Shown in pieces: positions 4,120-45,248 of a DNA stretch of 64,000 bases (its first letter is position 1; every line of letters begins with the position of its first letter). Made by a program: the position numbers and the translations under genes. Source of the stretch: Candidatus Nomurabacteria bacterium (GTDB lineage Bacteria > Patescibacteriota > Patescibacteriia > UBA1558 > GWA2-36-10); assembly GCA_020632415.1 (NCBI GenBank), contig JACKFO010000002.1, positions 711,918 to 775,917 on the forward strand, given 5' to 3'. The notes beneath the pieces were generated by a model that saw only the letters and a list, made by a program, of their open reading frames with translations, was not told the origin of the DNA and ran no database searches.

Positions 4120-5133
4120 ATGGCAGAAAAAAAGAAATTGGAGGACAAATTTAGCGCAGAGACACTAAATGCGATTACTCAGATACGTAGCCGTTTTGGT
4201 GAAGGTTCGATTATGAAGTTGGGTGAGGCCAAGGCAATGAATGTTGGCGCGGTAACGACCGGCTGTCTATCTCTGGACATGGCTTTGGGTGTTGGTGGTG
4301 TGCCAAAAGGTAGAATTGTTGAAATTTATGGACCAGAATCTTCTGGAAAAACAACTCTTGCCCAGCATATTGCCGCTGAAGTTCAAAAAGAAGGTGGCGT
4401 TGCCGCCTTTGTGGACGCTGAGCATGCCCTTGATCCGGATTATGCTAAGAAAATCGGTGTTAATGTTGAAGAGCTTTTGATTTCTCAACCAGACACAGGT
4501 GAGCAAGCCTTAGAGATTGTTGAAGCTTTGGTTCGATCAAATGGCGTGGGAGTGGTTATTGTGGATTCAGTAGCAGCTTTGGTTCCCAAAGCAGAAATCG
4601 AAGGTGATATGGGTGATTCTCACATGGGCTTACAAGCTCGCTTAATGTCTCAAGCTCTAAGAAAACTTGCGGGCATTGTTCACAAGAGCAACACAATTGT
4701 AATTTTCATTAATCAGATTAGAATGAAAATAGGCGTTTTCTTTGGCAATCCAGAAACAACTTCTGGAGGAAATGCTTTGAAGTTTTATTCTTCAGTTAGA
4801 ATTGAAGTCAGACGTTCAGCGCAAATTAAACAAGGAGAAAAGATTATTGGTAATCAGGTCAAAGCTAAAATAGTAAAAAATAAAGTCGCAGCTCCATTTA
4901 AAGGCGCCACTTTTGACATTATGTATAACGAAGGAATTTCTATTTCTGGGGACACTTTGGATACAGGACTAGCCATGGGAGTGATTACTAAGGCTGGAAA
5001 CTCTTATAGTTATGGCGAGACAAAACTAGGTGTTGGCCGAGAGACAGTGAAAACCTTTTTGAAAGAAAATCCCAAATTAATTGCTGAAATCAAGAAAAAA
5101 GTTTGGCAGGAATATAAGGCTCAAGATATTTAA
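4120..5133 (+). CDS. recA: Recombinase RecA
   Basis: Walker [12 protein letters not shown] and full-length RecA-like sequence (337 aa). Confidence 0.95.
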
Positions 5134-5207: not shown

Positions 5208-6635
5208 ATGTCTACGGCAAACAAAATTTTTTCCAACACAGTTTGGCAGATGGTTATTCGAGCTGTAAGTGTTTTGATTGGAGTTTTAAATTTGGCTTTA
5301 ATTACTCGTATTTTGGGAACAACAAATTTTGGTTTTTACACCACAATTTTTGCTTTTGTTCAGACTTTTATGATTTTTGCCGATCTTGGTTTGTATCTAA
5401 CTTTACTAAGAGAGGTTTCCGAAGCCAAAGATTGTAAGCAAGAATCAAGGGTAGTTAATAATATTTTTACAATTAGATTTTTTGCCTCATTATTTTTTTT
5501 AGGGCTCGCTCCTCTTTTGGTTTATTTTTTGCCTTATGACCAGGAAGTCAAAACACACATCACTTATTTCTTACTAGCCTTCTTTTTTCAAAGTTTAGTC
5601 TCAACTCTTTCTGCTGTCTTTGCTAAAAAACTAGAAATGCCAAAAGTAGCAATCGCTGATTTGGCCAATAAAGTAGTTTATTTTTTTGTTTTACTTTATT
5701 TATTTTTTGAATTTGGTAATTTAAAGCAGGTTTTATCTTGGCACTCAGCTACGCAAGCTTTTGGTTTTGTGATTTTGTTTTTCTTTTTAAGAAAACACGT
5801 ACATTTAAATTTTGCTTGGGATTTTAAATATTGGAAAAAAGTATTGATCGCCACTTGGCCACTAGCTTTGACCGTTGTTTTGAACCTGGTTTATTTTAAG
5901 GCAGACACTTTGATTTTATCCGCTTTTGCTAGCCCAGAAGACGTTGGTTTGTACGGCGCTCCTTATCGAATTTTAGAGGTTTTGGTGACTTTTCCGCACA
6001 TGTTTATGAGTTTGATCTTACCTTTATTTACAGCGGCTTATTTGACTGATAATTTAGGCAGACTAAAGGAAATTTGGCAAAATGTTCTTAATTTTTTTAT
6101 AGTTTTATCAGGAGCAATGCTTTTGGGGACTTGGCTGATCAGTAAACCCTTGATGATTTTATTAGCTGGATCGGACTTTGCTATTTCTGGACAAATTTTA
6201 AATATTTTAATTATTGCCACAGTAGCAATTTTTTTCGGCACCCTCTTTACTTACTTGGTTGTGGCGATTGCCGCTCAAAAAGAAATGGTCAAATATTTTT
6301 TGCTAGCCGCCATTTTTGGTTTGCTGGGCTATTTTCTTTTTATTCCATCTTTTGGCTATTGGGCCGCAGCTTGGATGACGGTTTTTGTAGAATTTTTGAT
6401 TGCCTTTTTTGCTTATTTAGTTTTAAGGAAACATCTTAAATTAAAAAGTGATTTAAATGTTTTATATAAAACTGCTGAAGCTTTTTTGCTAGCTTTTGCT
6501 TTTGGCTATTTGATTAGGAGTTGGCATTTTATTTTGGTCTTTGTTCTTTCTTTAACGGTTTACGCCTTGAGTTTATATTTATTAAAAGCTGTTGATTATA
6601 AAACCATTCAACAATTATTTAACAAGTCAGAATAA
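5208..6635 (+). CDS. Polysaccharide biosynthesis protein / oligosaccharide flippase (Wzx/MurJ-like MOP superfamily)
   Basis: 475 aa with about 12-14 TM helices; composition and topology are typical of the Polysacc_synt family. Confidence 0.6.
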   Translation: MSTANKIFSNTVWQMVIRAVSVLIGVLNLALITRILGTTNFGFYTTIFAFVQTFMIFADLGLYLTLLREVSEAKDCKQESRVVNNIFTIRFFASLFFLGLAPLLVYFLPYDQEVKTHITYFLLAFFFQSLVSTLSAVFAKKLEMPKVAIADLANKVVYFFVLLYLFFEFGNLKQVLSWHSATQAFGFVILFFFLRKHVHLNFAWDFKYWKKVLIATWPLALTVVLNLVYFKADTLILSAFASPEDVGLYGAPYRILEVLVTFPHMFMSLILPLFTAAYLTDNLGRLKEIWQNVLNFFIVLSGAMLLGTWLISKPLMILLAGSDFAISGQILNILIIATVAIFFGTLFTYLVVAIAAQKEMVKYFLLAAIFGLLGYFLFIPSFGYWAAAWMTVFVEFLIAFFAYLVLRKHLKLKSDLNVLYKTAEAFLLAFAFGYLIRSWHFILVFVLSLTVYALSLYLLKAVDYKTIQQLFNKSE

Positions 6636-7915
6636 TGTTAGAAATTTTAGCCATTTTTTTAGCCTTTTGTTTTGGAGCGCTAGCTTATCATAATTTGCTA
6701 AAAGCTTTAGCTCTATTGATTTTTTTATTGCCAAGCTACTTGTGGCGTTTAAGTTTTTTTGGCTTGCCCTCTAGCTTTTTAGAGTTATTAATTTTGGCTT
6801 TATTTTTGATTTTTTTAATTAAAGATCAAAACTGGCGTAAATTTAATTTTTTTCAGGCAAAGGAAAATTTGCTAAGTAAAAAATGGCAAGCTTTATTATT
6901 TTTGTGGCTATTGGCAAGTTTGTTTGCTTTGTTTGTTAATTTTAATTTTTCTAGCCTTGGTTTGTGGCGCGCTTATTTTTTGGAGCCGATGATGGTTTTT
7001 TTAGTTTTTATTTACGCTATCAATAAAGAAAAAGATTTAAAATTAATTTATTTATCCTTTTCTGCTTTATTATTTAGCCTTTTTGCTATTGCTCTATTTC
7101 AAGCTTTGACAGCTTGGAATTTACCGGCAGCTTATGACTTTCCTAATCCTAGAAGATTGACTACACTTTTTTCTTACCCCAATGCCCTGGCTCTATTTGT
7201 TGCTCCACTTGCTATTTTTTTATTGAGCTTAGCAAAAATAGTTCAAAATCAAAAAGAGAGAATTATTTATTTCATTTCAGCAATAATGGGTTTTTTATTG
7301 CTTATATTTGCTAGAAGTGAAGGGGCAATTTTAGCTTTAGTTATTGCTTTGTTTATTTTTATTTTTAAAAAATTAAGAAAAAATTTAGAACGGGCGATAA
7401 TATTTGCAGCCTCGGCATTTGTCTTATTTTTTACACCACTAAAAGTTTATTTTTACAAAATTTTTGGTGATTTACTTTGGCCAAACTCAGAATATTTTAC
7501 TAGTTCTTTGGCTGTACGTGGTTTGCAATGGCAGGAAACTTTTGCTCTGTTGCATGACCATTGGTTTTTTGGCGCAGGGATAAATGGCTATCAAAAAATG
7601 ATGGCAATTTACCATCAAATTACTTGGCTAGAAATCTTTTTGTACCCACATAATATCTTTTTAAATTTTTGGGTAGAATTAGGCCTCTTCGGCTTATTAA
7701 TTTTTATTGGTTTATTATTTTTTATTTTTAAAACTTGCTGGCAGTTAATTAAAAATCAAAATATTTTAGCCTGGCCCTTGACTTTAGCCTGGTTAACTAT
7801 TTTAATTCATGGTTTAGTTGATGTGCCTTATTTTAAAAATGATCTTAGTGTTTTATTTTTTATTTTTTTGGCTTTACTGATTATCGCGCAGAAGCAAGGC
7901 AAGGCTCAAGGCTAA
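6635..7915 (+). CDS. O-antigen ligase/polymerase-like (Wzy_C) membrane protein
   Basis: Multi-TM protein with a periplasmic-loop motif LHDHWFFGAGINGYQ and a later LTILIHGLVDVPYF. Confidence 0.55.
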   Translation: MLEILAIFLAFCFGALAYHNLLKALALLIFLLPSYLWRLSFFGLPSSFLELLILALFLIFLIKDQNWRKFNFFQAKENLLSKKWQALLFLWLLASLFALFVNFNFSSLGLWRAYFLEPMMVFLVFIYAINKEKDLKLIYLSFSALLFSLFAIALFQALTAWNLPAAYDFPNPRRLTTLFSYPNALALFVAPLAIFLLSLAKIVQNQKERIIYFISAIMGFLLLIFARSEGAILALVIALFIFIFKKLRKNLERAIIFAASAFVLFFTPLKVYFYKIFGDLLWPNSEYFTSSLAVRGLQWQETFALLHDHWFFGAGINGYQKMMAIYHQITWLEIFLYPHNIFLNFWVELGLFGLLIFIGLLFFIFKTCWQLIKNQNILAWPLTLAWLTILIHGLVDVPYFKNDLSVLFFIFLALLIIAQKQGKAQG

Positions 7916-9280
7916 ATAAACAATAATTAAAACGTGAAATAAGGCAGAGACAGTCAGATTTAATAAAAGCAAAGCTAGCAAAGAACTAAAAAGGCCTAAG
8001 TAAGCAGGTTCTTTTTTTATTTTTTGCCAAACTTTTTTTGTGAGCAAAAAGAAAAAGGTCAAAAAACTCAAAACACCAAAAATTCCCCATTTGATCCAGA
8101 TTTCAAAATAACCCCAATCAAAATAGCGTGTATTTTGTAAATTTCCTTGAGCATTGATCAGTTCCAGATTTTGTCCTAGGCCAGAGCCAAGCACAGGATT
8201 TTCCTTGATTAATTTTTTAATGGGTTTTAATAGCTCTAAACGATTAGTAGCACTTTGATCAGAGCTTGGTTCTTGCAAGCCATTGAGTCGTAGACCCAAA
8301 ATTGCTAAACCAGAGTCTTGTCCTTGGCTGGAAGCTAAATTTAGACCAACAAACAAACAGATAAAAATTAAAAGATTATAGAAAGCCAGTTTTAAGCAAG
8401 GTTTAAATTTGTCTCGAGAGAACAAAAATAAAAAACCAAAAATTAAACTTAAGAAATAAGCTCGAGAAACATTCAAGGCTAAAATTAGGTTTAAGAAAAC
8501 CAAAATTAAAAAATAAATTTTTTCTTTTTTGATTAAATAAAAGTTAGCTGCCAAAAAGAAGAAGGGAATGATTAAGATTTGTTCTGGAAAAACTACGCGC
8601 CAATAAAAAGGCGTGACTAGAGTAATTTTGGCCAAAGCAAAATCACGTAGCCAATTATAATAGGCTTGGTGAATAATCGTCGTTTCACTGACGAATAAAA
8701 AGAAATTTAGTAAAGCCCAGACAGCGCTACTTAATAAAAAAGCAATGATTAAATTTTTGAGGAAGGTTTTATTTTTTTCTGGTTTTAAAAATTCACTTGC
8801 TGGAATAAATAAAATTAAAAAAGCAAAAGGAATCAAATCTTGGTAAATATATTTTAGTTCATGACCAGCTTTGATTCCTAAAAAGGTGGCTAAAAATAAA
8901 AAGCAATAAAAAGTAATTAGAGAAAATAATATTTTTTTATCTATTTTAAAATTTTTGTATTTTTTATAAAATAAAAATTCGCTTAAATACAAAATTAAAA
9001 AAATAAGAGTCAGAGAGGTACGAAGGGAGAGACCGGAAAATTCAAAAAAATGTCCGGCGCCACCTAATAAATATTCACTAAGCAAAATCAACCAGGCTAA
9101 ATTTTTATTTTTTAAATAAATTAAAATAAAACCCAAGAGTAATAAAAAACTCAAAGTATTTGCTAGCAAAGAATGATTGATAAAAGCAAAAGAAAGTCCG
9201 CGGAGCAAAAAAAACCCCAGACTCAGTGATAAAATTTGTAGCCAAGAGATATTGGCTTTTGAGGTAGAAAATGATAACAT
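7874..9280 (-). CDS. O-antigen ligase/polymerase-like (Wzy_C) membrane protein, paralog
   Basis: Multi-TM protein with the motif NRLELLKPIKKLIKENPVLGSGLGQ. It is convergent with the previous gene and the 3' ends overlap by 42 bp. Confidence 0.5.
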   Translation of the reverse strand: MLSFSTSKANISWLQILSLSLGFFLLRGLSFAFINHSLLANTLSFLLLLGFILIYLKNKNLAWLILLSEYLLGGAGHFFEFSGLSLRTSLTLIFLILYLSEFLFYKKYKNFKIDKKILFSLITFYCFLFLATFLGIKAGHELKYIYQDLIPFAFLILFIPASEFLKPEKNKTFLKNLIIAFLLSSAVWALLNFFLFVSETTIIHQAYYNWLRDFALAKITLVTPFYWRVVFPEQILIIPFFFLAANFYLIKKEKIYFLILVFLNLILALNVSRAYFLSLIFGFLFLFSRDKFKPCLKLAFYNLLIFICLFVGLNLASSQGQDSGLAILGLRLNGLQEPSSDQSATNRLELLKPIKKLIKENPVLGSGLGQNLELINAQGNLQNTRYFDWGYFEIWIKWGIFGVLSFLTFFFLLTKKVWQKIKKEPAYLGLFSSLLALLLLNLTVSALFHVLIIVYLALSLALLLRDNQ

Positions 9281-12981: not shown

Positions 12982-13902
12982 ATGAAAAAATTTATTAGTT
13001 TGGCTTTTAGCTTTTCTTTACTGTTTGTGCCCTTTATTTCACATGCTGGCTTTTTAGATGACTTGAGCTGCATTCCTTCTGGTAACTGCGGCTTACTTGA
13101 TGTGGAGTTTGGCTTTGTTTTGCTGACTAAGTTTTTAATCGGCAGCGTTGGCGCTTTGGCCTTACTTTATTTTATTTGGGGCGGCATTCAGTGGCTAACC
13201 TCTTATGGAAACTTGGAAAAAGTCAGACACGGTAGAGAAATAATGTTGCAAACCATCGTAGCTATAGTGATTGCTTTTTTGAGTTTTATTTTGGTTGAAT
13301 TTTTTATCAACGATGTTTTGCAAGCCAGGCAGCCGGTAATTTCTACTGGTTGTGCTGGAAAAACAATGGGAGCTAGTTGCGGAGAAGACAAGCTTCATGT
13401 TTGTACTGGTCAAAAATTTACCGGAGAAGACTCAATTCATAATGAGCGTTGTGTGACAAAATGTGAGCTCAAAAATTTACAAGACAAGGCTAATGTTTGG
13501 ACTTGTTTAGCGCCAGAGATTGCCAGTCAGGCAGGAGTAGAAAAAGAATTGAATTTATGTCCAGGGACAGAAATTTGTGTCAATGCCAATACTATTCCTT
13601 TACGAAATATACCGGTTACCGAATTTAACGATCAAAATCGTTGTTGTGTTGGAGCACCGACTAACAGCGGTTCCGCTTGTCGATCAATTGGGATATTAGA
13701 CACTTGCTTGCCAGGAACAATTTTAAGTGAAAATACTTGTAGTTCTTTGGCGATGTGCGATAGTAATTGGCACACAGATCCAGGTTGCTGTATTGAGGTT
13801 GATCCTGATTCTTCTTTTACTTGTCAGCAACAAACCCCAGGGACTATTTGTGAGTTTAATTTTTCTGCTAATTTATTATGCAGTAGTGTTCCGGGGTGTT
13901 AA
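12982..13902 (+). CDS. VirB2/TrbC-like pilin-family protein fused to a large cysteine-rich C-terminal domain
   Basis: Signal peptide, then the pilin core LLYFIWGGIQWLTSYGNLEKVRHGREIMLQTIVAIVIAFLSFILVEF shared with the four downstream paralogs. This is followed by about 190 aa containing about 26 Cys. Confidence 0.6.
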   Translation: MKKFISLAFSFSLLFVPFISHAGFLDDLSCIPSGNCGLLDVEFGFVLLTKFLIGSVGALALLYFIWGGIQWLTSYGNLEKVRHGREIMLQTIVAIVIAFLSFILVEFFINDVLQARQPVISTGCAGKTMGASCGEDKLHVCTGQKFTGEDSIHNERCVTKCELKNLQDKANVWTCLAPEIASQAGVEKELNLCPGTEICVNANTIPLRNIPVTEFNDQNRCCVGAPTNSGSACRSIGILDTCLPGTILSENTCSSLAMCDSNWHTDPGCCIEVDPDSSFTCQQQTPGTICEFNFSANLLCSSVPGC

Positions 13903-13923
13903 TTAAATAGTTTTTTAAAGCTT

Positions 13924-14262
13924 ATGAAAAAAATAATTTTAGTATTTAGTATCTTATTGTTAGCGCCAATTCATTTCGCTTCAGCTGTCCAACTTTACAA
14001 TCCTTTGGGAAATGGTGTTAATAATTTTCCAGCTTTAGTTAACAATGTGATCAAAGGCGTCTTAGGGTTAACTGGCGCAGTTGCTTTGGTAATGATCGTC
14101 ATCGGTGGTGTGACCTGGATGACTTCTGCTGGTAATGCAGATCGAGTTAGACGTGGTAAAGATACTTTACTTTGGGCGATTTTAGGCTTGATTATCATTT
14201 TTATTAGTTACGCAGTAATTGATTTTGTTTTCAAGGCTTTGTTAAATGGTCAAGCTGCTTAA
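13924..14262 (+). CDS. VirB2/TrbC-like (T4SS-type) pilin family protein
   Basis: Signal peptide and two hydrophobic helices. The core VIGGVTWMTSAGNADRVRRGKDTLLWAILGLIIIFISYAV resembles the VirB2 ...IGISWMFGRAS... topology. Confidence 0.55.
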   Translation: MKKIILVFSILLLAPIHFASAVQLYNPLGNGVNNFPALVNNVIKGVLGLTGAVALVMIVIGGVTWMTSAGNADRVRRGKDTLLWAILGLIIIFISYAVIDFVFKALLNGQAA

Positions 14263-14342
14263 AGTTGATTGAAAAAAAACGTTCTTTGGTTTATAATGTA
14301 GCTATAATTATTAAAATATTTTAAATGAAAGGGGGTGGAAAA

Positions 14343-14690
14343 ATGAAAAAAATTTTGACAGCTTTATTACTAGTCGCTCCAATGATGGTTTCTGCTCAAG
14401 ATAATTTTGGTATTGATGATTTGACCAACACCGGTTTAGGTACTCGTGGTTTAAAATCAACAATTGCTCAATTACTTAACGTAGTTTTAAGTTTCTTAGG
14501 CATTATCGCCGTTTTAATCATCTTGTTAGGTGGTTTTAAATGGATGACTTCACAAGGCTCATCTGATAAAGTAGACGAAGCTAAAAAACTTATCGGCGCT
14601 GGCGTCGTTGGTTTAATCATCATCTTAGCTGCTTACGCTATTGTGCGTTTTGTCTTAACTGAGGTTTACTCTGCGACAACCGAGGCATAG
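14343..14690 (+). CDS. VirB2/TrbC-like pilin family protein (duplicate A)
   Basis: SD aaggggg lies 8 nt upstream of the ATG at 14343. The ORF-track start at 14325 merely translates the SD. Core LLGGFKWMTSQGSSDKVDEAKKLI. Confidence 0.55.
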   Translation: MKKILTALLLVAPMMVSAQDNFGIDDLTNTGLGTRGLKSTIAQLLNVVLSFLGIIAVLIILLGGFKWMTSQGSSDKVDEAKKLIGAGVVGLIIILAAYAIVRFVLTEVYSATTEA

Positions 14691-14797
14691 AGGCAGGGTA
14701 AGATGGGCTATTATAGTCTAGACTATAGTAGGCCAAAACTTGGCCTACTAAAGCGTAGATTATAAAAAATTGTTTTATAATGAAAGGGGGTGGAAAA

Positions 14798-15139
14798 ATG
14801 AAAAAAATTTTGACAGCTTTATTGCTAGTTGCTCCAATGGCCGCTTCTGCTCAAGCCAACTTTGGTATTAATGATTTAAATGGTACTGGTTTAGGTACCG
14901 CTGGTTTGAAGACAACAATCGGATCATTGCTTAATGTTGCTTTAAGTTTCTTAGGCATTATCGCCGTTTTAATCATCTTGTTAGGTGGTTTTAAATGGAT
15001 GACTTCACAAGGCTCATCTGATAAAGTAGACGAAGCTAAAAAACTTATCGGCGCTGGCGTCGTTGGTTTAATCATCATCTTAGCCGCTTACGCTATTGTT
15101 CGTTTCGTCTTAACCGAAGTTTATAACGCTACAACGTAG
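14798..15139 (+). CDS. VirB2/TrbC-like pilin family protein (duplicate B)
   Basis: The C-terminal half is near-identical to duplicate A at nucleotide level, while the N-terminal mature region has diverged. Same SD context. Confidence 0.55.
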   Translation: MKKILTALLLVAPMAASAQANFGINDLNGTGLGTAGLKTTIGSLLNVALSFLGIIAVLIILLGGFKWMTSQGSSDKVDEAKKLIGAGVVGLIIILAAYAIVRFVLTEVYNATT

Positions 15140-15226
15140 TTCGTAAACACAGCGTAACATAGGCTATTATAGTCTAGACTATAGTAGGCCAAGTTTTGGC
15201 CTACTAAAGCGTAGATTATAAATTTT

Positions 15227-15601
15227 ATGTATAAATTACTTTTTGCTTTTTTATTGTTAATGCCATTTCATTTTGCTTCAGCTTTGACCGCTGAAGAAGG
15301 CTTACGTAGCGCTGCTGAAGGTACTGGTTTGAGCATTGAAAAAAAGATTCCAGATTATATTGGAATGTTAATTCGCGGTGCTCTTGGTTTACTGGCTGCT
15401 ATTTTTTTGGTTTTGATTGTTTTGGCCGGATTTAAGTGGATGACCTCTGCTGGTAATTCTCAGAAGATAGAGAGCGCTAAAGAAACAATTCTTAACTCGG
15501 TTATTGGTTTGGTGATCGTTTTGGTTTCCTATGCGATTGTTGAGTTTGTTTTAAGAGCAATGAAAGGGGCAACTAATGCAGGTGGAGTAATTACGCAATA
15601 A
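15227..15601 (+). CDS. VirB2/TrbC-like pilin family protein
   Basis: Core VLAGFKWMTSAGNSQKIESAKETILNSVIGLVIVLVSYAIVEFV. Confidence 0.55.
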   Translation: MYKLLFAFLLLMPFHFASALTAEEGLRSAAEGTGLSIEKKIPDYIGMLIRGALGLLAAIFLVLIVLAGFKWMTSAGNSQKIESAKETILNSVIGLVIVLVSYAIVEFVLRAMKGATNAGGVITQ

Positions 15602-15616
15602 TTTTTTAAAAAATAG

Positions 15617-15653
15617 AGCCCTCTCGCAAGCTGATGCTGCGAGAGGGCTTTTG
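15617..15653. terminator. Bidirectional rho-independent terminator between convergent genes
   Basis: 12-bp stem agccctctcgca/tgcgagagggct flanked by T/A runs on both strands. Confidence 0.65.
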
Positions 15654-15668
15654 GTTCCAGAAGGATTA

Positions 15669-16280
15669 TCAGCGGAGCTCGACGTACCAGTCGACTGGCT
15701 TACCATTGAATTCCACCTTGTGACGATCGTCACGAATCGTCACCTTGGTGTAGTGGTTTTCTCCACGCGAAGTTTTCCAGTGAATGGTCATGGGGCCTGG
15801 GCTCAGGTAAAGCGCCTGACTAGCTTGACCGACTTCCAAGTGACCAACATTGCTGTAGCCACGGTAGGATACGATGTCAATTGGCTCTCGATAAGTATTG
15901 ATGAAGTAGCCTTCCAGTCGAGGCATGTTGTTTAGCAGGAAATCGTCTAGCTTAATTTCCTGAATTCCAGACCAGCGTCCGGTTCGCTGAATTGTGATCG
16001 CTTGTTCGTCTGAATATTGATCGATTTCGAGCCAGTACTTGACTCTCAGTCGAAGCTGGTCTTGGCGCGGCGTTTGAAAGCTGTGGCTTTGACCGGGCAG
16101 TAATTCAACGTAGGAGTTTCCCGAAGCTTCGGCCACGCTGAACATTACTCGCTCTCTGTCAGCTACGACTTTCCACTGACAAAACTCTTCGTTGTAATTC
16201 ATGCCACCATGGTAAGTGGCGCAGCCGGTCAGGAAGGCGACAAAGAGGATTGTCAGCCAGAGCAGTTTGTTGATCTTCAT
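15669..16280 (-). CDS. Hypothetical lipoprotein in a GC-rich island
   Basis: Signal peptide MKINKLLWLTILFVAFLTGC with lipobox. SD aggaaaag precedes the ATG at 16280. Local GC is about 50% against about 30% in the flanks. Confidence 0.55.
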   Translation of the reverse strand: MKINKLLWLTILFVAFLTGCATYHGGMNYNEEFCQWKVVADRERVMFSVAEASGNSYVELLPGQSHSFQTPRQDQLRLRVKYWLEIDQYSDEQAITIQRTGRWSGIQEIKLDDFLLNNMPRLEGYFINTYREPIDIVSYRGYSNVGHLEVGQASQALYLSPGPMTIHWKTSRGENHYTKVTIRDDRHKVEFNGKPVDWYVELR

Positions 16281-16392
16281 GGTCTTTTCCTTCTGCTTGT
16301 TTGATTGTCCAAGGTTCAAATCATTATATTATACTCTATTTTATCTATTTTGTCAATACACTTCGTCTTTTTGCATATGCTATAATTTAGCT

Positions 16393-18243
16393 ATGATTTT
16401 TTGGTCTAAAATGGGCTTATTTTTGGAAAAACACAGCAAGAAGCTATTAGTTCTGGCTATTGTCTTTTTTGCTCTATTTCTCGCCTTTTTGAGCCTCAGA
16501 AAGCTTGATTACTTTGCTTACAATGCCTTTGATTTGAGTATTTTTAATCAAGTTTTTTATAACACTCTGCATGGTCGTTGGTTTGAGATGACGATCAATC
16601 TTAATAGCTATTTAGCCGATCATTTTACACCAATCATTATTTTGTTTTTACCTTTTTATGCGCTGTGGCCCAAGGCCGAAGGATTGTTAATTTTGCAGTC
16701 TTTTATTTTAGCCTTTTCGGCTTGGCCGATTTACTTGATTAGCCGGCATGTTTTGGCTAACAAAAAAATTTCTTTTTTCATTGCCCTAGCTTGGCTATTC
16801 AATCCTTTTGTTCATAGCGCTCATTTTTATGAATTTCATCTATTGCCAATCGCAGTTTTATTTATTTTTTGGGCTTTTTATTTTTATCAAAAAGAAAAAT
16901 TTAAATATTTTATTTTATTTTTCATTTTAAGTTTATTAGTTAGAGAAGATGTTGCTTTGATTTTGTTAGGCTTCCCTTTTTTGGCTATTTTGGAACAGAG
17001 AAAAAAATTTTGGGTTATTCCAAGTTTGGTTTTGGCGCTATGTTATTTCTTTTTAAGTTTAAAAATTATTGGTCATTTTGATCCCAGCGGTTCTTATAAA
17101 TTTTTTATTTATTATTCTTGGCTAGGCGGACATAGTTTGGGCGAAATTATTTTTTCTTTTTTAATCCATCCTTTAAAAGTTTTACAACATATTTTTAGTT
17201 TGCAAAATATGTTTAATTTGGCAATAATTTTTTGGCCATTTTTATTTTTTCCATTTTTAAAACCAAAGTATTTTATCTTTTTTCTTTTACCATTGTTACA
17301 AATCATTATGACTGGTGGAGGATTTTCTTCAATGGTTTATCAGAGTCATTATATTTTATTTTTTTTACCTGGCTTATTTTTTGCTTTTATTTTTTCTTTT
17401 CAAAAAATCATTAAATTTAAGAATAAAAGTTTTATTTATTTACTCTTGTTTGTGACTGTAATTTATTTAGATTTATTTTTATCACCAGTTAAACAAGTTT
17501 TTCTTTATCCAAAACAGGAGAGCTTTATTACAGCAAAACAAGAAATGATCAAAACACTTGGCAGCGACAAAACATTGGCAGTGAGCGCTTCTTTTTTGCC
17601 GGCCTTAAGCACTAGAGAAAAAATTTACGCAGTTAATTATAGCTATTTTGCCAAAAGTCAGTTTGCTAAAAAAGATTTTATTTTACCAGATGTAGATTAT
17701 ATTTTGCTTGATTATAGCGACTTTATTGCTGATTTGCTAGAAAAGGAAACTAACAATCTTTTAGCTAGTCAAAGACCAAAGATGAATGATCGCTGGAAAG
17801 CCTTACTAGATAATTATCATTTAGAAAAAATAGATCATGATTTATTTTTATTCAGTAAAAAAACAGCAGAGGATCAAGAAAAATATCGGTTATTAGATTT
17901 CATTGAGCGTCCTGACAATCTACCAAATAAACTGATCTTAAATCAAGAATATATAGTAGATAAAGATGTTTTGAGCTTGGAGTTTAATCCTGATTTTTTT
18001 GCCGAAAATTATTTGATTCGTTTTTATGCTCAAGATTTTTTTTATGATTTACCGCTTGACTATGCTCTGATTTCCAAGGCTTTTCTAGACAAGCAGAAAG
18101 TGATTAAATTAAATTATTATCTCAGCTCAGAAATAAAAGCTTATCAGGTATTTTCTTGGAGCGGAGAAAACAAATTAGGATTGATTGGCGAGGTTGTTCC
18201 AGATTTGCAAATAAAAACTCTAAACGAAAAAATAAGCCTATGA
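16393..18243 (+). CDS. DUF2079-like polytopic membrane protein (putative envelope glycan-modifying enzyme)
   Basis: N-terminal motif AYNAFDLSIFNQVFYNT and many TM helices. TATAAT at 16381-16386 lies 6 nt before the ATG. The longer ORF from 16216 overlaps the convergent lipoprotein and was rejected. Confidence 0.5.
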   Translation: MIFWSKMGLFLEKHSKKLLVLAIVFFALFLAFLSLRKLDYFAYNAFDLSIFNQVFYNTLHGRWFEMTINLNSYLADHFTPIIILFLPFYALWPKAEGLLILQSFILAFSAWPIYLISRHVLANKKISFFIALAWLFNPFVHSAHFYEFHLLPIAVLFIFWAFYFYQKEKFKYFILFFILSLLVREDVALILLGFPFLAILEQRKKFWVIPSLVLALCYFFLSLKIIGHFDPSGSYKFFIYYSWLGGHSLGEIIFSFLIHPLKVLQHIFSLQNMFNLAIIFWPFLFFPFLKPKYFIFFLLPLLQIIMTGGGFSSMVYQSHYILFFLPGLFFAFIFSFQKIIKFKNKSFIYLLLFVTVIYLDLFLSPVKQVFLYPKQESFITAKQEMIKTLGSDKTLAVSASFLPALSTREKIYAVNYSYFAKSQFAKKDFILPDVDYILLDYSDFIADLLEKETNNLLASQRPKMNDRWKALLDNYHLEKIDHDLFLFSKKTAEDQEKYRLLDFIERPDNLPNKLILNQEYIVDKDVLSLEFNPDFFAENYLIRFYAQDFFYDLPLDYALISKAFLDKQKVIKLNYYLSSEIKAYQVFSWSGENKLGLIGEVVPDLQIKTLNEKISL

Positions 18244-19976
18244 CAAGTAATTTTAATTTTTTAAAAAAAGTTTTTGCAGCCAATATTTTTATTGTGTGTT
18301 TTTTTGGTTATTTAAGTCTTTATTTTTTGCTTTATCAGGGTAATTATTTTTTCTTTTTTGATCTTTTAAAAATAATCGCGATTTTATTTTTGTTTTTAGT
18401 GGGGGCCATCTTTGTCCCCCAAAGACACATCAAATATCTAGCCGCGCTATTAGCAGGGTTTTTTGTTTTAGATTTTGCTTTGCTTTTGTTTCATTTATTG
18501 CGACATGCATCTTTTAATTGGTTTTACTTTTGGTACAATCGACAAGAAGCTTGGCAGACCATTGATTTAGTTTTTCAGGGTGCGTGGTGGTATTTGTTGG
18601 CAGCTTTATTTTTTATTTTTACTTTTTTTTATTTTATTAAGCATTTGTTTGTGTTTTTTAAAAATAAGTTTAAGCTAAAGAGTGAAAAATATTTTTTTCT
18701 ATTTTTAGTGATACTGCTGCTGAGCCTTTCTTTTATCTCTACAAACAATCTTGAGCTGGTCAAAGTTATCAAGGAGGCATTTAGTAGTAATTCCGAGATT
18801 GTTAATCTGTATCAAGACTATTATCAAAAAATAATCAAAGATTATACTGTCAAGAATCAGAGAATTTTAGATAATTCAATCTTGAATTCGGAAGCTAATA
18901 TTTTTTTCTTGCATTTAGAAAGTTTAAATGGTGAATTTTTAAGTTCAGAAATTACGCCAAATTTTCAAGGGTTAGAAAACAAGGGCCTGGTTTTTAAAAA
19001 CATGCAGACCAACAATGTTCAGACAATTCGTGGTGAAGAAAATATCCTTTGCCCGGTTTTAGCCTCTATTGACCAAGACTTGCATCGCTCTGGCTTGAGC
19101 TCCCAGGCTCTTTGTTTGCCAAAAGTTTTAAAATCATTGGGCTACAAAACAATTTTTTTTAAAAGTCATGATTTATCTTTTGCGGACACCGGTGAATTTA
19201 TGAAAAACATCGGCTTTGATGAGGTTCATAGCTCAGATATCATGTCTCCAGAAGATCAAGAGTTGGCTTGGGGCTATCGAGAGGATCTTTTTTATCAAAG
19301 AGTTTTAGAGTATTTAAAGCAATATCAAGATCAAAAGATTTTTGCTTATATTGCTGTCAGCACCACTAATCACGTGCCTTTTGTTTTGGGTCAGAATTAT
19401 CAAGATTTAAATCTACAATTGCCATCCACTGGAGATAGTTTTTTGGCGCGTCTAAAAAATACTACTTTTGTTCAAGATTATTTTTTTGGAAACTTTTTAG
19501 AGCGATGGCAAGAAAAATATCAAAGCAATTCTCACCTTTTTGCTTTTGGTGATCAGGCTTGGCCAGTTGGCAAGCATGATAATTATTACAATGAAGCCTA
19601 TGCTTATCAAGAGAATTTTTTGTCCAGCTTGGCTGTGTTATCTCCAGAATTAAAAACTTTTGGCTTAAAAGAAAATTATCTTAGTCAAAATGATATTTTT
19701 CTTAGTATTTTGTCATTGCTTGGCCTAGATAGTTTTCAAAGTCCTGGCAAAAATATTTTTACTACAGATAATAAATGTATTATTGCTGTGCAGCCTTATT
19801 CGCGTCGTTATATCACGGCGATTAATTATCCAGAAAAATATATTTATAATATTTTAGATAATATTTTAGAAATTTATAATTTAGCAGATGATCCAGCAGA
19901 AAAAAATCCACTGTTTGTTGGAACAGCAGACGATTTGTCTTATTTAGAAAATTGTTTAGAAAATATCGCTAATTAA
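18240..19976 (+). CDS. LtaS/MdoB-like membrane-anchored sulfatase (alkaline phosphatase superfamily, phosphoglycerol-transferase-like)
   Basis: N-terminal TM helices plus a C-terminal sulfatase-like domain. Its start overlaps the upstream stop by 4 nt (ATGA), indicating translational coupling. Confidence 0.55.
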   Translation: MTSNFNFLKKVFAANIFIVCFFGYLSLYFLLYQGNYFFFFDLLKIIAILFLFLVGAIFVPQRHIKYLAALLAGFFVLDFALLLFHLLRHASFNWFYFWYNRQEAWQTIDLVFQGAWWYLLAALFFIFTFFYFIKHLFVFFKNKFKLKSEKYFFLFLVILLLSLSFISTNNLELVKVIKEAFSSNSEIVNLYQDYYQKIIKDYTVKNQRILDNSILNSEANIFFLHLESLNGEFLSSEITPNFQGLENKGLVFKNMQTNNVQTIRGEENILCPVLASIDQDLHRSGLSSQALCLPKVLKSLGYKTIFFKSHDLSFADTGEFMKNIGFDEVHSSDIMSPEDQELAWGYREDLFYQRVLEYLKQYQDQKIFAYIAVSTTNHVPFVLGQNYQDLNLQLPSTGDSFLARLKNTTFVQDYFFGNFLERWQEKYQSNSHLFAFGDQAWPVGKHDNYYNEAYAYQENFLSSLAVLSPELKTFGLKENYLSQNDIFLSILSLLGLDSFQSPGKNIFTTDNKCIIAVQPYSRRYITAINYPEKYIYNILDNILEIYNLADDPAEKNPLFVGTADDLSYLENCLENIAN

Positions 19977-21507
19977 TTTGATAAATTTCGACTTCCTGAT
20001 CTTCATAAACTAAAGAAATGTTTTGGTCAGCGACTAAAGCATTTTTTAATTCTTCTTTTTTATTTTCTTTTTCTAATAAAATATAATTACTATGAAATTT
20101 TTCTTTGATTGTCGTAGCCAAGTCATCGGTCTCTTGGCCAGAGCCCAAATCTAAATACAATTGATGTAGATCAAGGCTGTAATTATGCATAAAGGTTGGA
20201 TCCAGGCCAATGAGATAATAATTTTTTTGGTTGTGATAAAAAAGCATCGGCCACTGATCCCAGTCATCGTGAAAAACAATGCTTTGTTCTGGAGTATTAT
20301 TTTTAAGCCAAGCACTTGCAGCAGCAAATCTGTCGAAAGCTAGTCTTTGTGGCAGATTAAAAGTAAGCGCTTTGTTCAAAATCAAAGGGATGACCACGAT
20401 CAGCAAAATGCTCAAACTGATCGCAGTGTATGTTTTTAAATAAATATTTAATTTAAGCCAAAAATTTTTAATATTTTGGCGATTAAAAATACTTTTTAGA
20501 TCATTGGCGGCAAAGCTCACAAAAAGCAACAAGAAAGGTAAAAAATATTCAATATAACGACTAGATTTGATCGTTAATAACAAAAAACCAAAGCTTAACA
20601 AAAGACTAAAAGTTGTTTTTTGTGTTAATTTTTGGTAATTAAAGACCAATAAGATGATAAAAAGCCAACTTAAGATAAATAAATGTGGAGCAGAAGATAA
20701 GATTTTGAAAAAACTTGCCCCATACCATTCTCCGCCAACAGCAAACTGATTGCCAAGATTGATTAGTCCGATTTGGATCACTTGCTGCCAATAGAAATAA
20801 AGATTTTCTGGCCAATAAGGATGAGAAATTAGTCCAGCTAATATTCCTCCTAGGCTCCAGATTATTTTTTGCCAATGATAATGTATTTTGACTGAACTTA
20901 TTTTATTGTTGAGCCAAATACTGACAAAATAAGCCAAGAGGATTGGGAAAATAATTGGCCAGCCACCATAAAGCCAAACAAATAACCAGCTCAAAGCAAA
21001 GAGTAATTTATTTTTATTTTTTAAGAGAGCATAAATAAAAAATAAGCAAAGAATAAAGCTCAAAGAATTTGTTTTGATCAAGCTCCAGCGGAAGTTTAAA
21101 TTTGGCAGGGTCAGAATCAAGAGGCTAAAAAGCCAGGCAAAGGTTATGTTTAGTTTTTTTAGAAGCCAATAGAAGCTCAAAACTGCTAAAGTAGCAAATA
21201 AAACAGCAGCAATTTTGACGCCCCACAAAGGATCAGAAAATCTGACAAAAGGAATGAGAAAAATATGATACAAAAAGTGATGATCAGTAAAATTTTCAGC
21301 CAAAGTGCTGAATTGCATCCAAGGTAGTGCGTGTAAGATCTTTCCTTGGCCTAAAATTTGAGCTATTTTAGCATGATAAAAGCCATCAGGGTCACCGATG
21401 ACGGGATTTTTTTGCCAAAGCCAATAAAAGCTCAAAAAAATAAAAAACAAAGACCAGTAGTCAAATCGCCAGGCTTGAATTTTATTTTTTAGGGAGTCTG
21501 ATTTCAT
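19969..21507 (-). CDS. GT-C-like polytopic membrane glycosyltransferase candidate (ArnT/PMT-like)
   Basis: 512 aa, more than 10 TM helices, and a first-loop acidic motif GDPDGFYHAKIAQ. On the minus strand TGCTACAAT lies 9 nt upstream of the ATG. Confidence 0.4.
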   Translation of the reverse strand: MKSDSLKNKIQAWRFDYWSLFFIFLSFYWLWQKNPVIGDPDGFYHAKIAQILGQGKILHALPWMQFSTLAENFTDHHFLYHIFLIPFVRFSDPLWGVKIAAVLFATLAVLSFYWLLKKLNITFAWLFSLLILTLPNLNFRWSLIKTNSLSFILCLFFIYALLKNKNKLLFALSWLFVWLYGGWPIIFPILLAYFVSIWLNNKISSVKIHYHWQKIIWSLGGILAGLISHPYWPENLYFYWQQVIQIGLINLGNQFAVGGEWYGASFFKILSSAPHLFILSWLFIILLVFNYQKLTQKTTFSLLLSFGFLLLTIKSSRYIEYFLPFLLLFVSFAANDLKSIFNRQNIKNFWLKLNIYLKTYTAISLSILLIVVIPLILNKALTFNLPQRLAFDRFAAASAWLKNNTPEQSIVFHDDWDQWPMLFYHNQKNYYLIGLDPTFMHNYSLDLHQLYLDLGSGQETDDLATTIKEKFHSNYILLEKENKKEELKNALVADQNISLVYEDQEVEIYQIN

Positions 21508-42958: not shown

Positions 42959-43762
42959 TTATATTTTTAGTTTGTTTAGTTGATTTTTGAGTGTCTGATG
43001 GATTTTTTTGTTAGCAGCTAATAAGGTTTTTGATTTTAAATTCCATTCTTTGCCTTGAAAGTCAGTGACCTTTCCACCGGCCTCACGAATTAAAATTATT
43101 CCTGCTGCAATATCCCAAATCTTTGCTTGCGCTACTATCAAGGCCTCGGTATTGCCGGCAGCCACCATGGCTAGTTCTAAAGTTGTGCTGCCAAAGTGTC
43201 GGCAATCACGCGCAACTTCATGAAAGTGTTCGTAAACTTTGTAAGCTTGTCGATGAGTCTTTAGGGTCTGTCCATGACAGTAAGTAATGAAACTTTTTTT
43301 CAGTAAATTAATTTCAGAAACTTTAATTTTTTTATTGTTTCTAAAGGCGCCAGCCCCAGAAACAGCATGGTACAACTCGTTTAAAACAGGCATGTAAGTC
43401 ACACCCAAGACAATTTGATCTTTATAAAGCAGACTAACCGAAACAGTAAACAGGGGATTGTGAATCGTAAAATTACTAGTGCCATCCATTGGATCGATAA
43501 CCCATGAATAGTCACTACTTTTATTATTCTTGCCACTTTCTTCAGACAAAACAGCGTAATCGGGAAAGTTTTTGTTTAGAATATTTAAAATAGTGCCTTC
43601 AGATTTTTTATCGCACCAAGTGACAATTTCATCGTGTTTTTTGTAAGTTGCCTTACCGCGTTGCCATTTCTTAAATTCTTTTTCCAAAGCTTCGCCAGCT
43701 TTGATTACGGCTTGTTTAACAATTTTTAATTCTTTTTGGTAGTTCATTTTTATGCTTGACAT
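42959..43762 (-). CDS. Inositol monophosphatase family protein (SuhB-like)
   Basis: WVIDPMDGTSNF and IMPase-like length. Confidence 0.75.
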   Translation of the reverse strand: MSSIKMNYQKELKIVKQAVIKAGEALEKEFKKWQRGKATYKKHDEIVTWCDKKSEGTILNILNKNFPDYAVLSEESGKNNKSSDYSWVIDPMDGTSNFTIHNPLFTVSVSLLYKDQIVLGVTYMPVLNELYHAVSGAGAFRNNKKIKVSEINLLKKSFITYCHGQTLKTHRQAYKVYEHFHEVARDCRHFGSTTLELAMVAAGNTEALIVAQAKIWDIAAGIILIREAGGKVTDFQGKEWNLKSKTLLAANKKIHQTLKNQLNKLKI

Positions 43763-44274
43763 TTATTACTTGTTCCACAATTATAGCTGCAGCAATCAGA
43801 ATCAGAGGAACATCCTGAATCATTTGCCACACAAGATTGACAAAAATCTACGCCATCGTTATGTTCAAAACATTTTTCATCGGTACAAACAATTAGTTCA
43901 TTTGGATTTGATGTTTTTTGAATTTCTAGACAAAATTTTTGTTTTTGGTAATTTGATCTTATTTTTCGATAAGAATAATTTTCTATAGTTGGCCAACGCC
44001 AATTATTCAAAAAATTATAGCAAAGAAATTCTGGAGGCGTCGGAACACTTAAAGAACATTGAAGCCCTGTGCATTGTAAATTTGCACCAGAGTCTAAACA
44101 CAAAATAGCTTCGGTTTGCAGAGCTTTGATCTCTCCTAGTGCAGCGGCATTTTTAGCATCTTCGCGTGCTGAATTTAAATTGATTACCGCCACAGAAGAT
44201 AGTATGCCAATAATTGAAATTACTACTAATAATTCCACTAAAGTAAAACCTTTTTTGTTTTTCTTTTTGATCAT
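43750..44274 (-). CDS. Type IV pilin (prepilin) with a Cys-rich C-terminal domain
   Basis: Class III leader MIKKKNKKG|FTLVELLVVISIIGIL. The start at 44274 abuts the upstream stop. About 13 Cys in the last 90 aa. Confidence 0.7.
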   Translation of the reverse strand: MIKKKNKKGFTLVELLVVISIIGILSSVAVINLNSAREDAKNAAALGEIKALQTEAILCLDSGANLQCTGLQCSLSVPTPPEFLCYNFLNNWRWPTIENYSYRKIRSNYQKQKFCLEIQKTSNPNELIVCTDEKCFEHNDGVDFCQSCVANDSGCSSDSDCCSYNCGTSNKCQA

Positions 44275-44780
44275 TTTATTTCGTTTAATAAAATTAACCT
44301 TGCTTTGAGAGTGGACATTTCTATTATAGCAAATGTTGGGGCACAACGGATATTGGCAACATTGCCAGAGTTTAAAATTTTGGTTTTTTCCCAAATTTGT
44401 TCCCAAGGTTGATGAGTGTGTCCGTGTAGAGCTAAATCGTATTTAATTTTTGATTTTGCAAATATTTTTTTTAAGGTTGTTGGGTAATGAGTGAAAATGA
44501 TTTTTTTATTCTCAATTTCTGCTGTGCCGACATTAGCAAATAGTTTTATATTTTTTAGTTGTTTTTGTAAATTTTCAAAACCTAAAATATCGTGGTCAAC
44601 ATTACCAAATACTGCCCAGGAAGGAATTTTTAATTCATCTAATAAAAGCCAAGCTTCTAAACTTTGAACGTCGCCAGTACAAATCAGATAATCTATTTTT
44701 TCTTTTTTGATTAGTGCCAGGGCTTTGTTTAGATTAGGAATGTTATCATGAATGTCAGAAATGACAGCGAGTTTTGACAT
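44271..44780 (-). CDS. Metallophosphoesterase (YfcE/MJ0936-like)
   Basis: DIHDN...GDV...GNVDH...HGHTH calcineurin-like motifs. Confidence 0.7.
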   Translation of the reverse strand: MSKLAVISDIHDNIPNLNKALALIKKEKIDYLICTGDVQSLEAWLLLDELKIPSWAVFGNVDHDILGFENLQKQLKNIKLFANVGTAEIENKKIIFTHYPTTLKKIFAKSKIKYDLALHGHTHQPWEQIWEKTKILNSGNVANIRCAPTFAIIEMSTLKARLILLNEIK

Positions 44781-44846: not shown

Positions 44847-45248
44847 TCAGCCTCTAAGTAGAGCCATGATCCTTCCCATTGCTGCGAGCTCGTCTTCTCC
44901 CTTGGCCTTGATCAAGGGGAAGAATGACCGACAAAAACGAGTATGGTTGTCGTTCCACCAAGAATCAACAAAGCCGTTGAGCATATTTCTCGCGCAAGAT
45001 GTTTTTTCTTGCTCGAATAAGCTAAGGCAATACAGGACTTCCAAGATGAGCAACTTATCGATTTCTTCGGCGCTGATTTCTACCCCTTCTTCTCGGAGCA
45101 CGTCTGCGCTTTTGAAGTACACAATTAACTGTAAAAAGCCGAGGACGTTTTCTCGATAGTTTAGAGCGCACCTTAAGCCGAAGTATTGCTCTTGGGTTTT
45201 TCTGTCAAAGGGATCGCTGATGACTAGCTCTATCTCGTTGATCTTCAT
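44847..45248 (-). CDS. Hypothetical protein in a GC-rich island
   Basis: 133 aa; SD GGAGG 8 nt before the ATG; GC about 48%. Confidence 0.45.
   Translation of the reverse strand: MKINEIELVISDPFDRKTQEQYFGLRCALNYRENVLGFLQLIVYFKSADVLREEGVEISAEEIDKLLILEVLYCLSLFEQEKTSCARNMLNGFVDSWWNDNHTRFCRSFFPLIKAKGEDELAAMGRIMALLRG

Follow-up and report, generated by a model that had tools for sequence, protein, structure and literature searches.

An old tandem pair of VirB2-like pilin genes with a probably gene-converted core and a conserved 3' stem-loop in a Candidatus Nomurabacteria genome

The window analyzed here, a 64-kb stretch (64,000 nt) of contig JACKFO010000002.1 (assembly GCA_020632415.1, positions 711,918 to 775,917 of the forward strand), is part of a Candidatus (Ca.) Nomurabacteria chromosome (Patescibacteria/Candidate Phyla Radiation, CPR) and carries a syntenic cluster of five pilin genes of the type IV secretion system (T4SS) kind. 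Two of these genes, hereafter copies A and B, stand in tandem, and each is followed by the same 61-nt element. An original prediction, made from the letters of this region, had described a recent duplication of a pilin gene, homogenized in one half by gene conversion and diversifying in the other, with an intergenic palindromic repeat whose hairpin loop is flipped between the copies. The duplication, the homogenized part, the 61-nt element behind each copy with its perfect 16-nt palindrome and the flipped loop were all found as described. Its age, the selection acting on it and the nature of the element are read differently below: we propose an old duplication with a secondarily converted core, followed by an RNA stem-loop that is conserved across species. 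This reading is based on the following features, for which all coordinates are those of the window.

14343 to 14690, + strand: copy A, a predicted (presumably major) VirB2-like T4SS pilin of 115 amino acids (aa) (H6761_03775, MCB9803097.1; PF18895, 33.9 bits with a cut-off of 26.6)
14798 to 15139, + strand: copy B, a predicted (presumably major) pilin of 113 aa (H6761_03780, MCB9803098.1; PF18895, 33.7 bits with a cut-off of 26.6)
14486 to 14629, equal to 14941 to 15084, + strand: putative gene-conversion tract of 144 nt without a difference, covering helix 1, the loop and most of helix 2 (synonymous differences and permutation)
14759 to 14781, + strand: duplication junction, where the 3' end of the first hairpin (GATTATAAA) runs into the diverged sequence that follows the -10 box (AATTATTAAAA...), located by alignment with 14280-14345
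14706 to 14766, + strand: hairpin element copy 1 (arms 14711-14736 and 14740-14765, loop AAC at 14737-14739, palindrome 14712-14727; covariance model 80.8 bits)
15162 to 15222, + strand: hairpin element copy 2 (arms 15167-15192 and 15196-15221, loop GTT at 15193-15195, palindrome 15168-15183; covariance model 82.1 bits)
14269 to 14297, + strand: predicted sigma-70-like promoter TTGAAA-17-TATAAT (11 of 12 consensus positions), before copy A only and outside the duplicated unit
14327 to 14338 (A) and 14782 to 14793 (B), + strand: extended Shine-Dalgarno (SD) sequence GAAAGGGGGTGG, with a predicted pairing of -18.5 kcal/mol to a generic anti-SD

The assignment of A and B to the VirB2/TrbC-like T4SS pilins (PF18895) is based on their hidden Markov model (HMM) score in combination with their architecture, since the fold searches are non-specific. 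Both score above the PF18895 cut-off, and with the TrbC family (PF04956) they reach 22.9 and 21.4 bits, respectively, below the cut-off of 27.9. By inspection, each has a predicted Sec-type signal with an AXA site (VSA/Q and ASA/Q). The AlphaFold2 model (mean predicted local distance difference test score 76.6) places a signal helix at residues 2-17, an unstructured segment at 18-36 and helices at 37-68 and 74-114. A signal peptide followed by two hydrophobic helices that are connected by a short polar loop is indeed the architecture of T4SS pilins. Fold searches and PDB sequence searches with the pilin returned non-specific matches, the model being a generic helical hairpin. The Pfam HMM search gave no match in A or B to the N-methylation motif of type IV pilins (PF07963), and type IV pilins with a class III signal peptide are thereby ruled out. 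The term pilin in the original prediction is thus kept, in the sense of the T4SS type and not of the type IV pilus. A protein with an N-terminal methylation motif resembling type IV pilins is encoded at 43750-44406 on the minus strand, so that pilins of that type are present as well, apart from the T4SS-type cluster.

We presume that the A/B-type gene encodes the major, highly expressed subunit because of its strong promoter and extended SD. Boxes of the form TTGAAA/TTGAAT...TATAAT also precede the orthologous gene in four related loci (L002, L004, L100 and L101). The string shared upstream of both copies, which had already been pointed out in the original prediction, is the extended SD GAAAGGGGGTGG. 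The one of A shows the strongest predicted anti-SD pairing among the 44 likely genes of the window, and the string is kept before the orthologous gene in relatives. A strong SD occurs in only three of these 44 genes, namely pilin A, pilin B and a gene for a 133-aa protein without assigned function (44847-45248, minus strand), and in about 10 of the 44 a TAnAAT box ends 4-14 nt ahead of the start codon, so that mRNAs with a very short leader or none at all are suggested for these genes. The deposited products of A and B (121 and 119 aa, MKGGGKMKK...) start at an ATG that overlaps the SD (14325-14327 and 14780-14782), 18 nt upstream of the starts used here; the true starts are probably 14343 and 14798, and the NCBI starts would then be placed 18 nt too far 5'. 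A second promoter inside the 5' arm of the hairpin was considered on the basis of two TATAGT boxes, but it was judged weak in view of a missing TG extension and the lack of a conserved -35 box.

The two copies form a tandem repeat with a unit of 455-456 nt and are 89% identical, yet this identity is distributed as a mosaic. A and B are equal over 14324-14368, i.e., the ribosome binding site and the first 26 nt of the coding sequence, and 30 differences then fall within coding nt 27-143. The 144-nt tract follows, and past it come scattered, mostly synonymous changes, a diverged tail (SATTEA versus NATT) and a diverged 3' untranslated region. In terms of the proportion of differing synonymous (pS) and non-synonymous (pN) sites (Nei-Gojobori), codons 14-47 have a pS of 0.60 (15 of about 24 synonymous sites) and a pN of 0.18, codons 48-97 a pS of 0.03, and codons 98-110 at the end of helix 2 a pS of 0.64 and a pN of 0.07. 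When A or B is compared to its orthologues in L100, L101, L002 and L016b, pS amounts to 0.5-0.7 in every segment, with 0.53-0.74 in the core. The unconverted parts of A and B are thus as old as species-level splits, as their pS equals that found between species. The core is evidently not under synonymous constraint in this family, and its identity between A and B must therefore stem from recent recombination. The uninterrupted run of 144 nt is longer than in any of 200,000 permutations (P<5e-6), irrespective of whether all sites or only family-variable sites are permuted. By these measures of divergence the duplication is old, and on statistical grounds the 144-nt core was copied from one copy onto the other by gene conversion. 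Homogenization of this kind has probably also reached the hairpin and the 5' leader, the signal peptide included.

The junction between the copies is informative about how the unit arose. The breakpoint falls where the hairpin ends on its 3' side, in a short stretch of similarity, ATTAT(A/T)AAA, which suggests that this similarity mediated the duplication. Because the breakpoint is located after the -10 box, the 456-nt unit took the SD, the gene and the hairpin along, but not the promoter at 14269-14297. Tandem duplication of this gene is recurrent among relatives: L008, L015, L016, L019 and L020 have two major-pilin copies each, and the pair of L015 shows identical tracts and diverged tips in the same mosaic as A and B. 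In L016 and L019, the 'a' copies (with a DSGKVD loop and GG-rich tails) and the 'b' copies group across both genomes, which indicates an older, shared duplication whose core was not homogenized, unlike in the window. A distant relative, L068 (contig Ga0156801_113, 2400-4071), has three tandem 557-nt units, each with a 130-aa pilin gene and downstream hairpins. Between its copies 1 and 2 the identity is 100%, and copy 3 matches at about 95% over the gene, which makes this a very recent tandem amplification. One short-read contig of another assembly, L001 (ENA ERZ28655857, scaffold_57018, 1-1428), is 100% identical to 13542-15424 of the window save for a single chimeric pilin gene, which combines the 5' part of A with the 3' part of B and carries the GTT loop. 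This contig represents either an assembler collapse or a real variant generated by unequal crossover; an A5'/B3' chimera is expected from a collapse across the 144-nt identical tract and equally from unequal crossover.

Three other histories of the pair have to be weighed against an old duplication with a converted core. In the version of the original prediction, the duplication would be recent, the exposed N-terminal half would have diversified quickly by adaptation, and the 3' half would be identical for lack of time. The long identical stretches, which include the non-coding leader and the hairpin, and an N-terminal region that is the most variable part of the protein family-wide are both in line with this. 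However, a pS of 0.60 in the variable part and of 0.64 at the end of helix 2, the latter with almost no amino acid change, equal the between-species values, and the unconverted segments as a whole differ at about 60% of their synonymous sites, as other-species orthologues do. In addition, the variable part has a pN/pS of about 0.3 and a ratio of non-synonymous to synonymous rates (dN/dS) of about 0.18, which speaks against diversification by positive selection. The variable tips change faster than the core, but a dN/dS of about 0.2-0.3 does not demonstrate positive selection. Moreover, the variable region of B is closer to the pilin of another organism (80% amino acid identity to P0006 of L100) than to A (68%). 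A recent origin is therefore very improbable. The latter similarity is rather what would be expected if the pair, or one copy of it, were young and the tips of one copy had been replaced by homologous import from a related lineage, without any conversion of the core within the genome. Patescibacteria carry genes for competence and recombination, and RecA is encoded in the window (4120-5133). Nevertheless, synonymous divergence between B and L100 has reached saturation in the variable region (pS 0.56), and no near-identical or recent donor was found among the loci compared. Import would also need two patches, one at the N-terminus and one across the end of helix 2, the tail and the 3' untranslated region, around an untouched core, whereas a single conversion tract is sufficient otherwise, and the pair of L015 has acquired the same mosaic independently. 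We consider import unlikely. Finally, the pair could be an assembly artefact that joined the alleles of two strains at what is really a single-copy gene, or the genuine arrangement could be the single chimera of L001, which does match the window at 100% once A and B are merged into one. The A-B junction with the second SD copy (14759-14797) and both diverged tails, however, are unique sequences that an assembler cannot invent, and for this reason the duplication is judged real. Concatenated alleles would predict contigs of the type A5'+A3' or B5'+B3' and no junction, instead of A5'+B3'. Tandem duplicates of the gene occur in L008, L015, L016, L019, L020 and L068 as well, and the source contig is 842 kb long. 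The tandem duplication is thus very probably real, and an artefact is very improbable.

The element behind each copy is more than the 9-bp-stem hairpin that had been noted: this stem is present, but it forms the apex of a longer hairpin, which is imperfect and has arms of 26 nt. Both element copies contain the perfect palindrome TATAGTCTAGACTATA. They have a predicted folding energy of -33.6 and -33.0 kcal/mol, respectively (z about -6), and none of 200 shuffles folds as well. Within the window, a 25-mer of the element is found only at the two copies, with an expectation of 0.00 in window shuffles. The search for further copies comprised the window and 100 related loci, together with a 21-mer scan of 185,579 species-representative genomes. 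The 21-mer TATAGTCTAGACTATAGTAGG was recovered from 14 loci in 13 Patescibacteria metagenome-assembled genomes (MAGs). Protein-first sampling, which is free of motif ascertainment, added about 14 more loci with the element. It occurs in about 25 related genomes, with a single copy in each locus. In every locus, the element is found 6-28 nt past the stop codon of a GGFKWMTSQG-type pilin gene and shortly ahead of the next pilin gene. In the protein-sampled loci it occupies the same place whenever the pilin reaches an identity of roughly 55-60% with A, and behind more distant pilin genes there are usually other strong hairpins. A covariance model based on 23 distinct element copies gives only two hits within the window and a single one at each other locus. 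The intergenic repeat of the original prediction is thus a single-copy, locus-specific stem-loop, conserved across species and duplicated here along with its gene. A dispersed palindromic repeat, similar to repetitive extragenic palindromic (REP) sequences, bacterial interspersed mosaic elements (BIME) or miniature inverted-repeat transposable elements (MITE), was rejected on the same distribution (two duplicated copies only in 64 kb, and one per locus in relatives). Several of the MAG records that bear the locus (L006, L007, L010-L012, L017 and L018) are labelled 'uncultured Gammaproteobacteria bacterium', probably a mislabelled taxonomy, and MAG CAZILH01 has two versions of the locus on two contigs, suggesting a mixed bin.

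The element evolves as expected of an RNA structure. In the alignment of the 23 sequences, 94.5% of the cells of its 23 pairs are paired, compared to 34-41% in slid controls. Five pairs have changed on both sides (e.g., GGCCAA/TTGGCC, GGTCAA/TTGACC, GGCTAT/ATAGCC and GGCAAA/TTTGCC), and the observed covariation is reached by none of 500 shuffles. Three pairs toggle between Watson-Crick and G·U pairing. Over all pairs, 40 cells are G·U on the plus strand and 8 would pair only on the minus strand; this asymmetry indicates that the structure is formed in the sense transcript. Covariation and strand asymmetry together identify the element as a conserved mRNA stem-loop on the sense strand, directly 3' of the presumed major pilin cistron. 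The two arms do not evolve alike. In the 5' arm, 19 nt (TAGTCTAGACTATAGTAGG, including the perfect palindrome AGTCTAGACT) are invariant among species with saturated synonymous sites, whereas the 3' arm drifts. In three further loci (L032 591-668, L034 2386-2462 and L095 2856-2929), the basal stem AGTCTAG(A/G)C...GC(K)TAGAC(T) or TATAGTCTAGGCTATA is kept, and the apical stems are unrelated and GC-rich. As these loci keep that part only, the palindromic base is the most conserved module. An Rfam search at gathering and permissive thresholds returned only tRNAs, with sub-threshold microRNA and small nucleolar RNA noise on the hairpin.

The position of the stem-loop gives an indication of its possible role. 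It is located at the 3' end of a presumably highly expressed cistron within an operon, it lacks a U-run, and the next pilin gene, which is without its own promoter, starts 0-30 nt past the stem; in one subclade (L007, L013, L014, L017 and L018) the downstream ATG even lies inside the stem base. These are the positional hallmarks of SRPS (selective RNA processing and stabilization). By analogy, the element most likely stabilizes or attenuates the major-pilin transcript in an SRPS-like manner. Since nearly all genes of the window lack an SD, the SD-less downstream gene provides no argument for translational coupling through the hairpin, and this proposal was dropped. The invariant 5' arm is likely to have a sequence-specific reader, which may be a protein, an RNase or an alternative pairing; the chief alternative to this is an operator in the DNA.

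A plain Rho-independent terminator of the major pilin gene, the simplest role for a very stable stem-loop right behind a stop codon, would also be compatible with the T residues that occur in copy A 9-14 nt downstream. Yet the stem is not followed by a T-run in the window or in relatives, where the tails read AAAAAATTG, ATTTTATGT, ACTACATATG and similar, and a terminator scan makes no call on the element, whereas a canonical T-run terminator at 15617-15649 closes the operon. Full termination would moreover silence a conserved, promoterless downstream pilin gene. The suggestion that the element might be unique to the window, or a simple terminator, is thus contradicted by its presence in about 25 related genomes and by the missing T-run, and we regard a terminator as unlikely. 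Slightly less probable still is a site that acts on the DNA level, in which the palindrome (AGTCTAGACT within TATAGTCTAGACTATA) would serve a dimeric regulator as its operator, or recombination as its site, the potential to form a hairpin being secondary. Such a site would account for the 19 nt of the 5' arm that, unlike the partner arm, do not vary among loci found through the protein, and for the AGTCTAG[A/G]C core that L032, L034 and L095 have kept in spite of a replaced apical stem. It does not account for the compensatory changes that maintain pairing in the apical stem, nor for the variation of the 3' arm, which is G·U-compatible on the sense strand (40 versus 8 cells) and as such unexpected for duplex DNA. 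There is no further exact copy of the palindrome in the window (with up to two mismatches, its 12-nt form has four two-mismatch matches elsewhere against 1.4 expected) and no adjacent recombinase or regulator gene. By inspection, the ends of the element do not carry the core sites of integron attC sites (RYYYAAC/GTTRRRY), and there is no integrase among the scanned open reading frames (ORFs) of the window. An attC site, a dif/Xer site, a shufflon and an invertible switch were all discarded, with neither the core motifs nor a recombinase among those ORFs.

The two element copies are identical at 58 of 61 positions, and the three remaining ones form the loop, where AAC and GTT are exact reverse complements. 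The change from GTAGGCCAA-AAC-TTGGCCTAC to GTAGGCCAA-GTT-TTGGCCTAC, or the reverse, has occurred on a perfect stem and without a change in length, as is characteristic of a template-switch loop inversion. For hairpins with perfect pairing, inversions confined to the loop have been documented as a result of template switching during replication, also in bacterial RNAs (PMC8794818; PMC8604942), and the perfect 9-bp stem is the substrate to be expected. A single inversion is far more parsimonious than three adjacent substitutions, and on this ground the flip would represent one template-switch event at the perfect 9-bp stem, after the last homogenization. As the two near-palindromic element copies, 456 nt apart, also match each other in inverted orientation (85% over 55 nt), an inter-copy event in an inverted register is possible as well. 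Among 26 distinct elements compared, no second pair of reverse-complement loops on the same stem was found, and nothing leads us to ascribe a function to the flip.

Taken together, we favor an explanation in which an old duplication, a converted core, a stem-loop acting as stabilizer or attenuator and a template-switch loop flip are combined, and we give it a probability of roughly 0.6. In this model, the 456-nt unit comprising ribosome binding site, gene and hairpin, without the promoter, would have been duplicated long ago via the short similarity, and RecA-type conversion would later have copied the 144-nt core between A and B. The outcome would be two pilins with an identical helix-loop-helix core, and with different N-terminal segments of the mature protein and different C-terminal tails. 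By analogy with F and T pili, these differing segments and tails should face outward. The stem-loop would shield the transcript of the major pilin against 3' exonucleases and/or reduce read-through in part, such that the mRNA of the major pilin would exceed that of the co-transcribed downstream pilin, copy B included.

Several points weigh against this explanation. The designations 'major pilin' and 'exposed tips' reach beyond a generic structural model and non-specific fold searches. There is no virB4, virD4 or virB6 in the 64 kb, and the tie to a T4SS machine is presumed. A foreign allele segment taken up via homologous recombination would leave the same mosaic as an intragenomic conversion, and L001 with its one chimeric gene bears on the copy number in the population. 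The hairpin may be a stabilizer, an attenuator, a processing site or a protein-binding site, among which position and analogy are our guides. Pairing by itself fails to explain why the 19-nt 5' arm (TAGTCTAGACTATAGTAGG) is invariant and the 3' arm drifts. A more far-reaching possibility, which we put forward only tentatively as it is rather unlikely, is that a protein or RNase reads the 19-nt arm with AGTCTAGACT and sets the ratio of the pilin variants within the essential pilus-like apparatus of CPR bacteria, while the A/B unit shuffles the exposed tips and adapts attachment to different host strains. If true, conversion and unequal crossover, with the chimera of L001 as a possible product, would vary pilin tips within a population.

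The pair is embedded in a cluster in which all five VirB2/TrbC-like genes exceed the PF18895 gathering threshold in the Pfam HMM search, with a weaker TrbC/VirB2 match, and none carries the N-methylation motif of type IV pilins. The remaining members and the end of the operon are listed below.

12982 to 13902, + strand: first gene of the cluster, 306 aa, with an N-terminal T4SS_pilin-like domain and a C-terminal extension with 22 Cys (PF18895, 26.9 bits with a cut-off of 26.6)
13924 to 14262, + strand: second pilin paralogue, 112 aa (PF18895, 40.8 bits; TrbC, 28.4 bits), synteny kept in relatives
15227 to 15601, + strand: last pilin paralogue, 124 aa, without SD and with its start codon 5 nt past hairpin 2 (PF18895, 40.0 bits), position kept in relatives
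15617 to 15649, - strand: canonical GC-rich terminator hairpin with T-run, between the pilin operon and the convergent gene 15669-16319

The gene order is kept in related MAGs: NTP-transferase, solute-binding protein, large pilin-domain protein, 112-aa pilin, major pilin, last pilin, convergent 216-aa gene and DUF2079. The 306-aa gene retains the first position of this cluster in relatives, and its Cys-rich product could be a pilus tip or adhesin subunit. The neighbors are housekeeping and envelope genes, namely rpoC, ftsK, recA, those for Wzy_C proteins, NTP-transferase, solute-binding protein, DUF2079 and a sulfatase-like protein, glycogen genes, and those for PBP1, uvrB, polA, H+-PPase and nusA. 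Among the scanned ORFs of at least 100 aa in the window, none has a VirB4, VirD4, VirB6 or VirB8 domain; about 40% of CPR pilin genes are not near virB4 (PMC12102498). The cluster is flanked (5208-9280 and 16216-21507) by two Wzy_C genes (O-antigen-ligase/PglL-like), a polysaccharide flippase, DUF2079, an LtaS/sulfatase-like protein and a large membrane protein without assigned function. The pilin tails (14670-14690 and 15125-15139) are rich in Thr and Ser, with N-A-T or N-E-T motifs family-wide. Considering the Wzy_C neighbors and these tails, glycosylated pilins are a possibility.

Arrays of VirB2-like pilin genes belong to the small number of gene sets with a demonstrated essential role in the epibiotic life of Patescibacteria. 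Each part of the locus is of a known kind, namely a CPR pilin array, concerted evolution of tandem paralogues, an intercistronic stabilizer stem-loop and a template-switch loop inversion. What is new is an unusually similar, converted pair among arrays of a class for which uniform divergence had been described, a conserved RNA motif that is tied to the major pilin gene and not found in Rfam, and an extended SD within a nearly SD-less genome, which flags the A/B-type gene as exceptionally expressed. An identical pilus-wall core with two sets of tips is what would be expected if both subunits must co-assemble and yet present different surfaces. The stem-loop, a candidate cis-regulatory motif kept in a subclade of Parcubacteria-like genomes, could help to annotate the major pilin gene, and the locus offers testable elements for the first genetically tractable CPR systems.

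Gene conversion of pilins is well-known from the pilE/pilS system of Neisseria. The virB2 paralogues of Bartonella and Anaplasma are likewise referred to as cases of concerted evolution or antigenic variation (cited in PMC12102498). Similar to these antigenic-variation systems, the pair described here combines a conserved core with variable, presumably exposed parts and segments that are moved by recombination. Unlike the systems of the Neisseria type, the window has two expressed-looking copies and no silent cassette library, and conversion has evened out the core and not the variable part, with no sign of a programmed mechanism and a dN/dS below 1.

Among Patescibacteria, 441 arrays of 2-11 VirB2-like pilin genes have been described, in which the identity between members averages 25% and does not exceed 54% (Quinonero-Coronel et al. 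2025, PMC12102498). The six-gene array of Ca. Southlakia epibionticum is cited as essential (Wang et al. 2023, as cited in PMC12857230). The cluster analyzed here has the same tandem small PF18895/PF04956 pilin genes, and Nomurabacteria are among the listed phyla (PMC12102498). In contrast to the published maximum of 54%, A and B are 89% identical with a 144-nt identical tract, and the cluster is not beside virB4 within the 64 kb. As far as they were consulted, the published accounts (PMC12102498, PMC12857230) mention neither a 3' hairpin nor an extended SD. The picture of uniformly divergent arrays (at most 54% identity) is thus refined, not overturned.

In the case of the stem-loop, the closest counterpart is SRPS, where stem-loops lacking a U-run, located 3'-terminally on the most abundant cistrons, determine the stoichiometry of subunits and are conserved among related species, e.g., in the cip-cel operon of C. 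cellulolyticum and the pap and unc operons of E. coli (PMC4423207). The element shares with them a stable, U-less intergenic stem-loop in an operon for the subunits of one assembly, predicted downstream co-transcription and orthologous stem-loops. It differs by the unusual conservation of its primary sequence (19 invariant nt and an internal perfect palindrome) and by its 26-nt arms; such long conserved arms would also suit a double-strand-specific RNase or a binding protein. Rho-independent terminators have the same GC-containing stem-loop after a stop codon, but the element has no U-tract, and a co-transcribed gene follows directly. The flipped loop, finally, corresponds to published template-switch loop inversions (Monttinen and Loytynoja 2022, PMC8794818) in its perfect stem, its exactly reverse-complementary loop, its unchanged length and a stem without footprint. 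Whereas those cases were deduced from phylogenies, both states are found here side by side in the duplicated copies of one genome.

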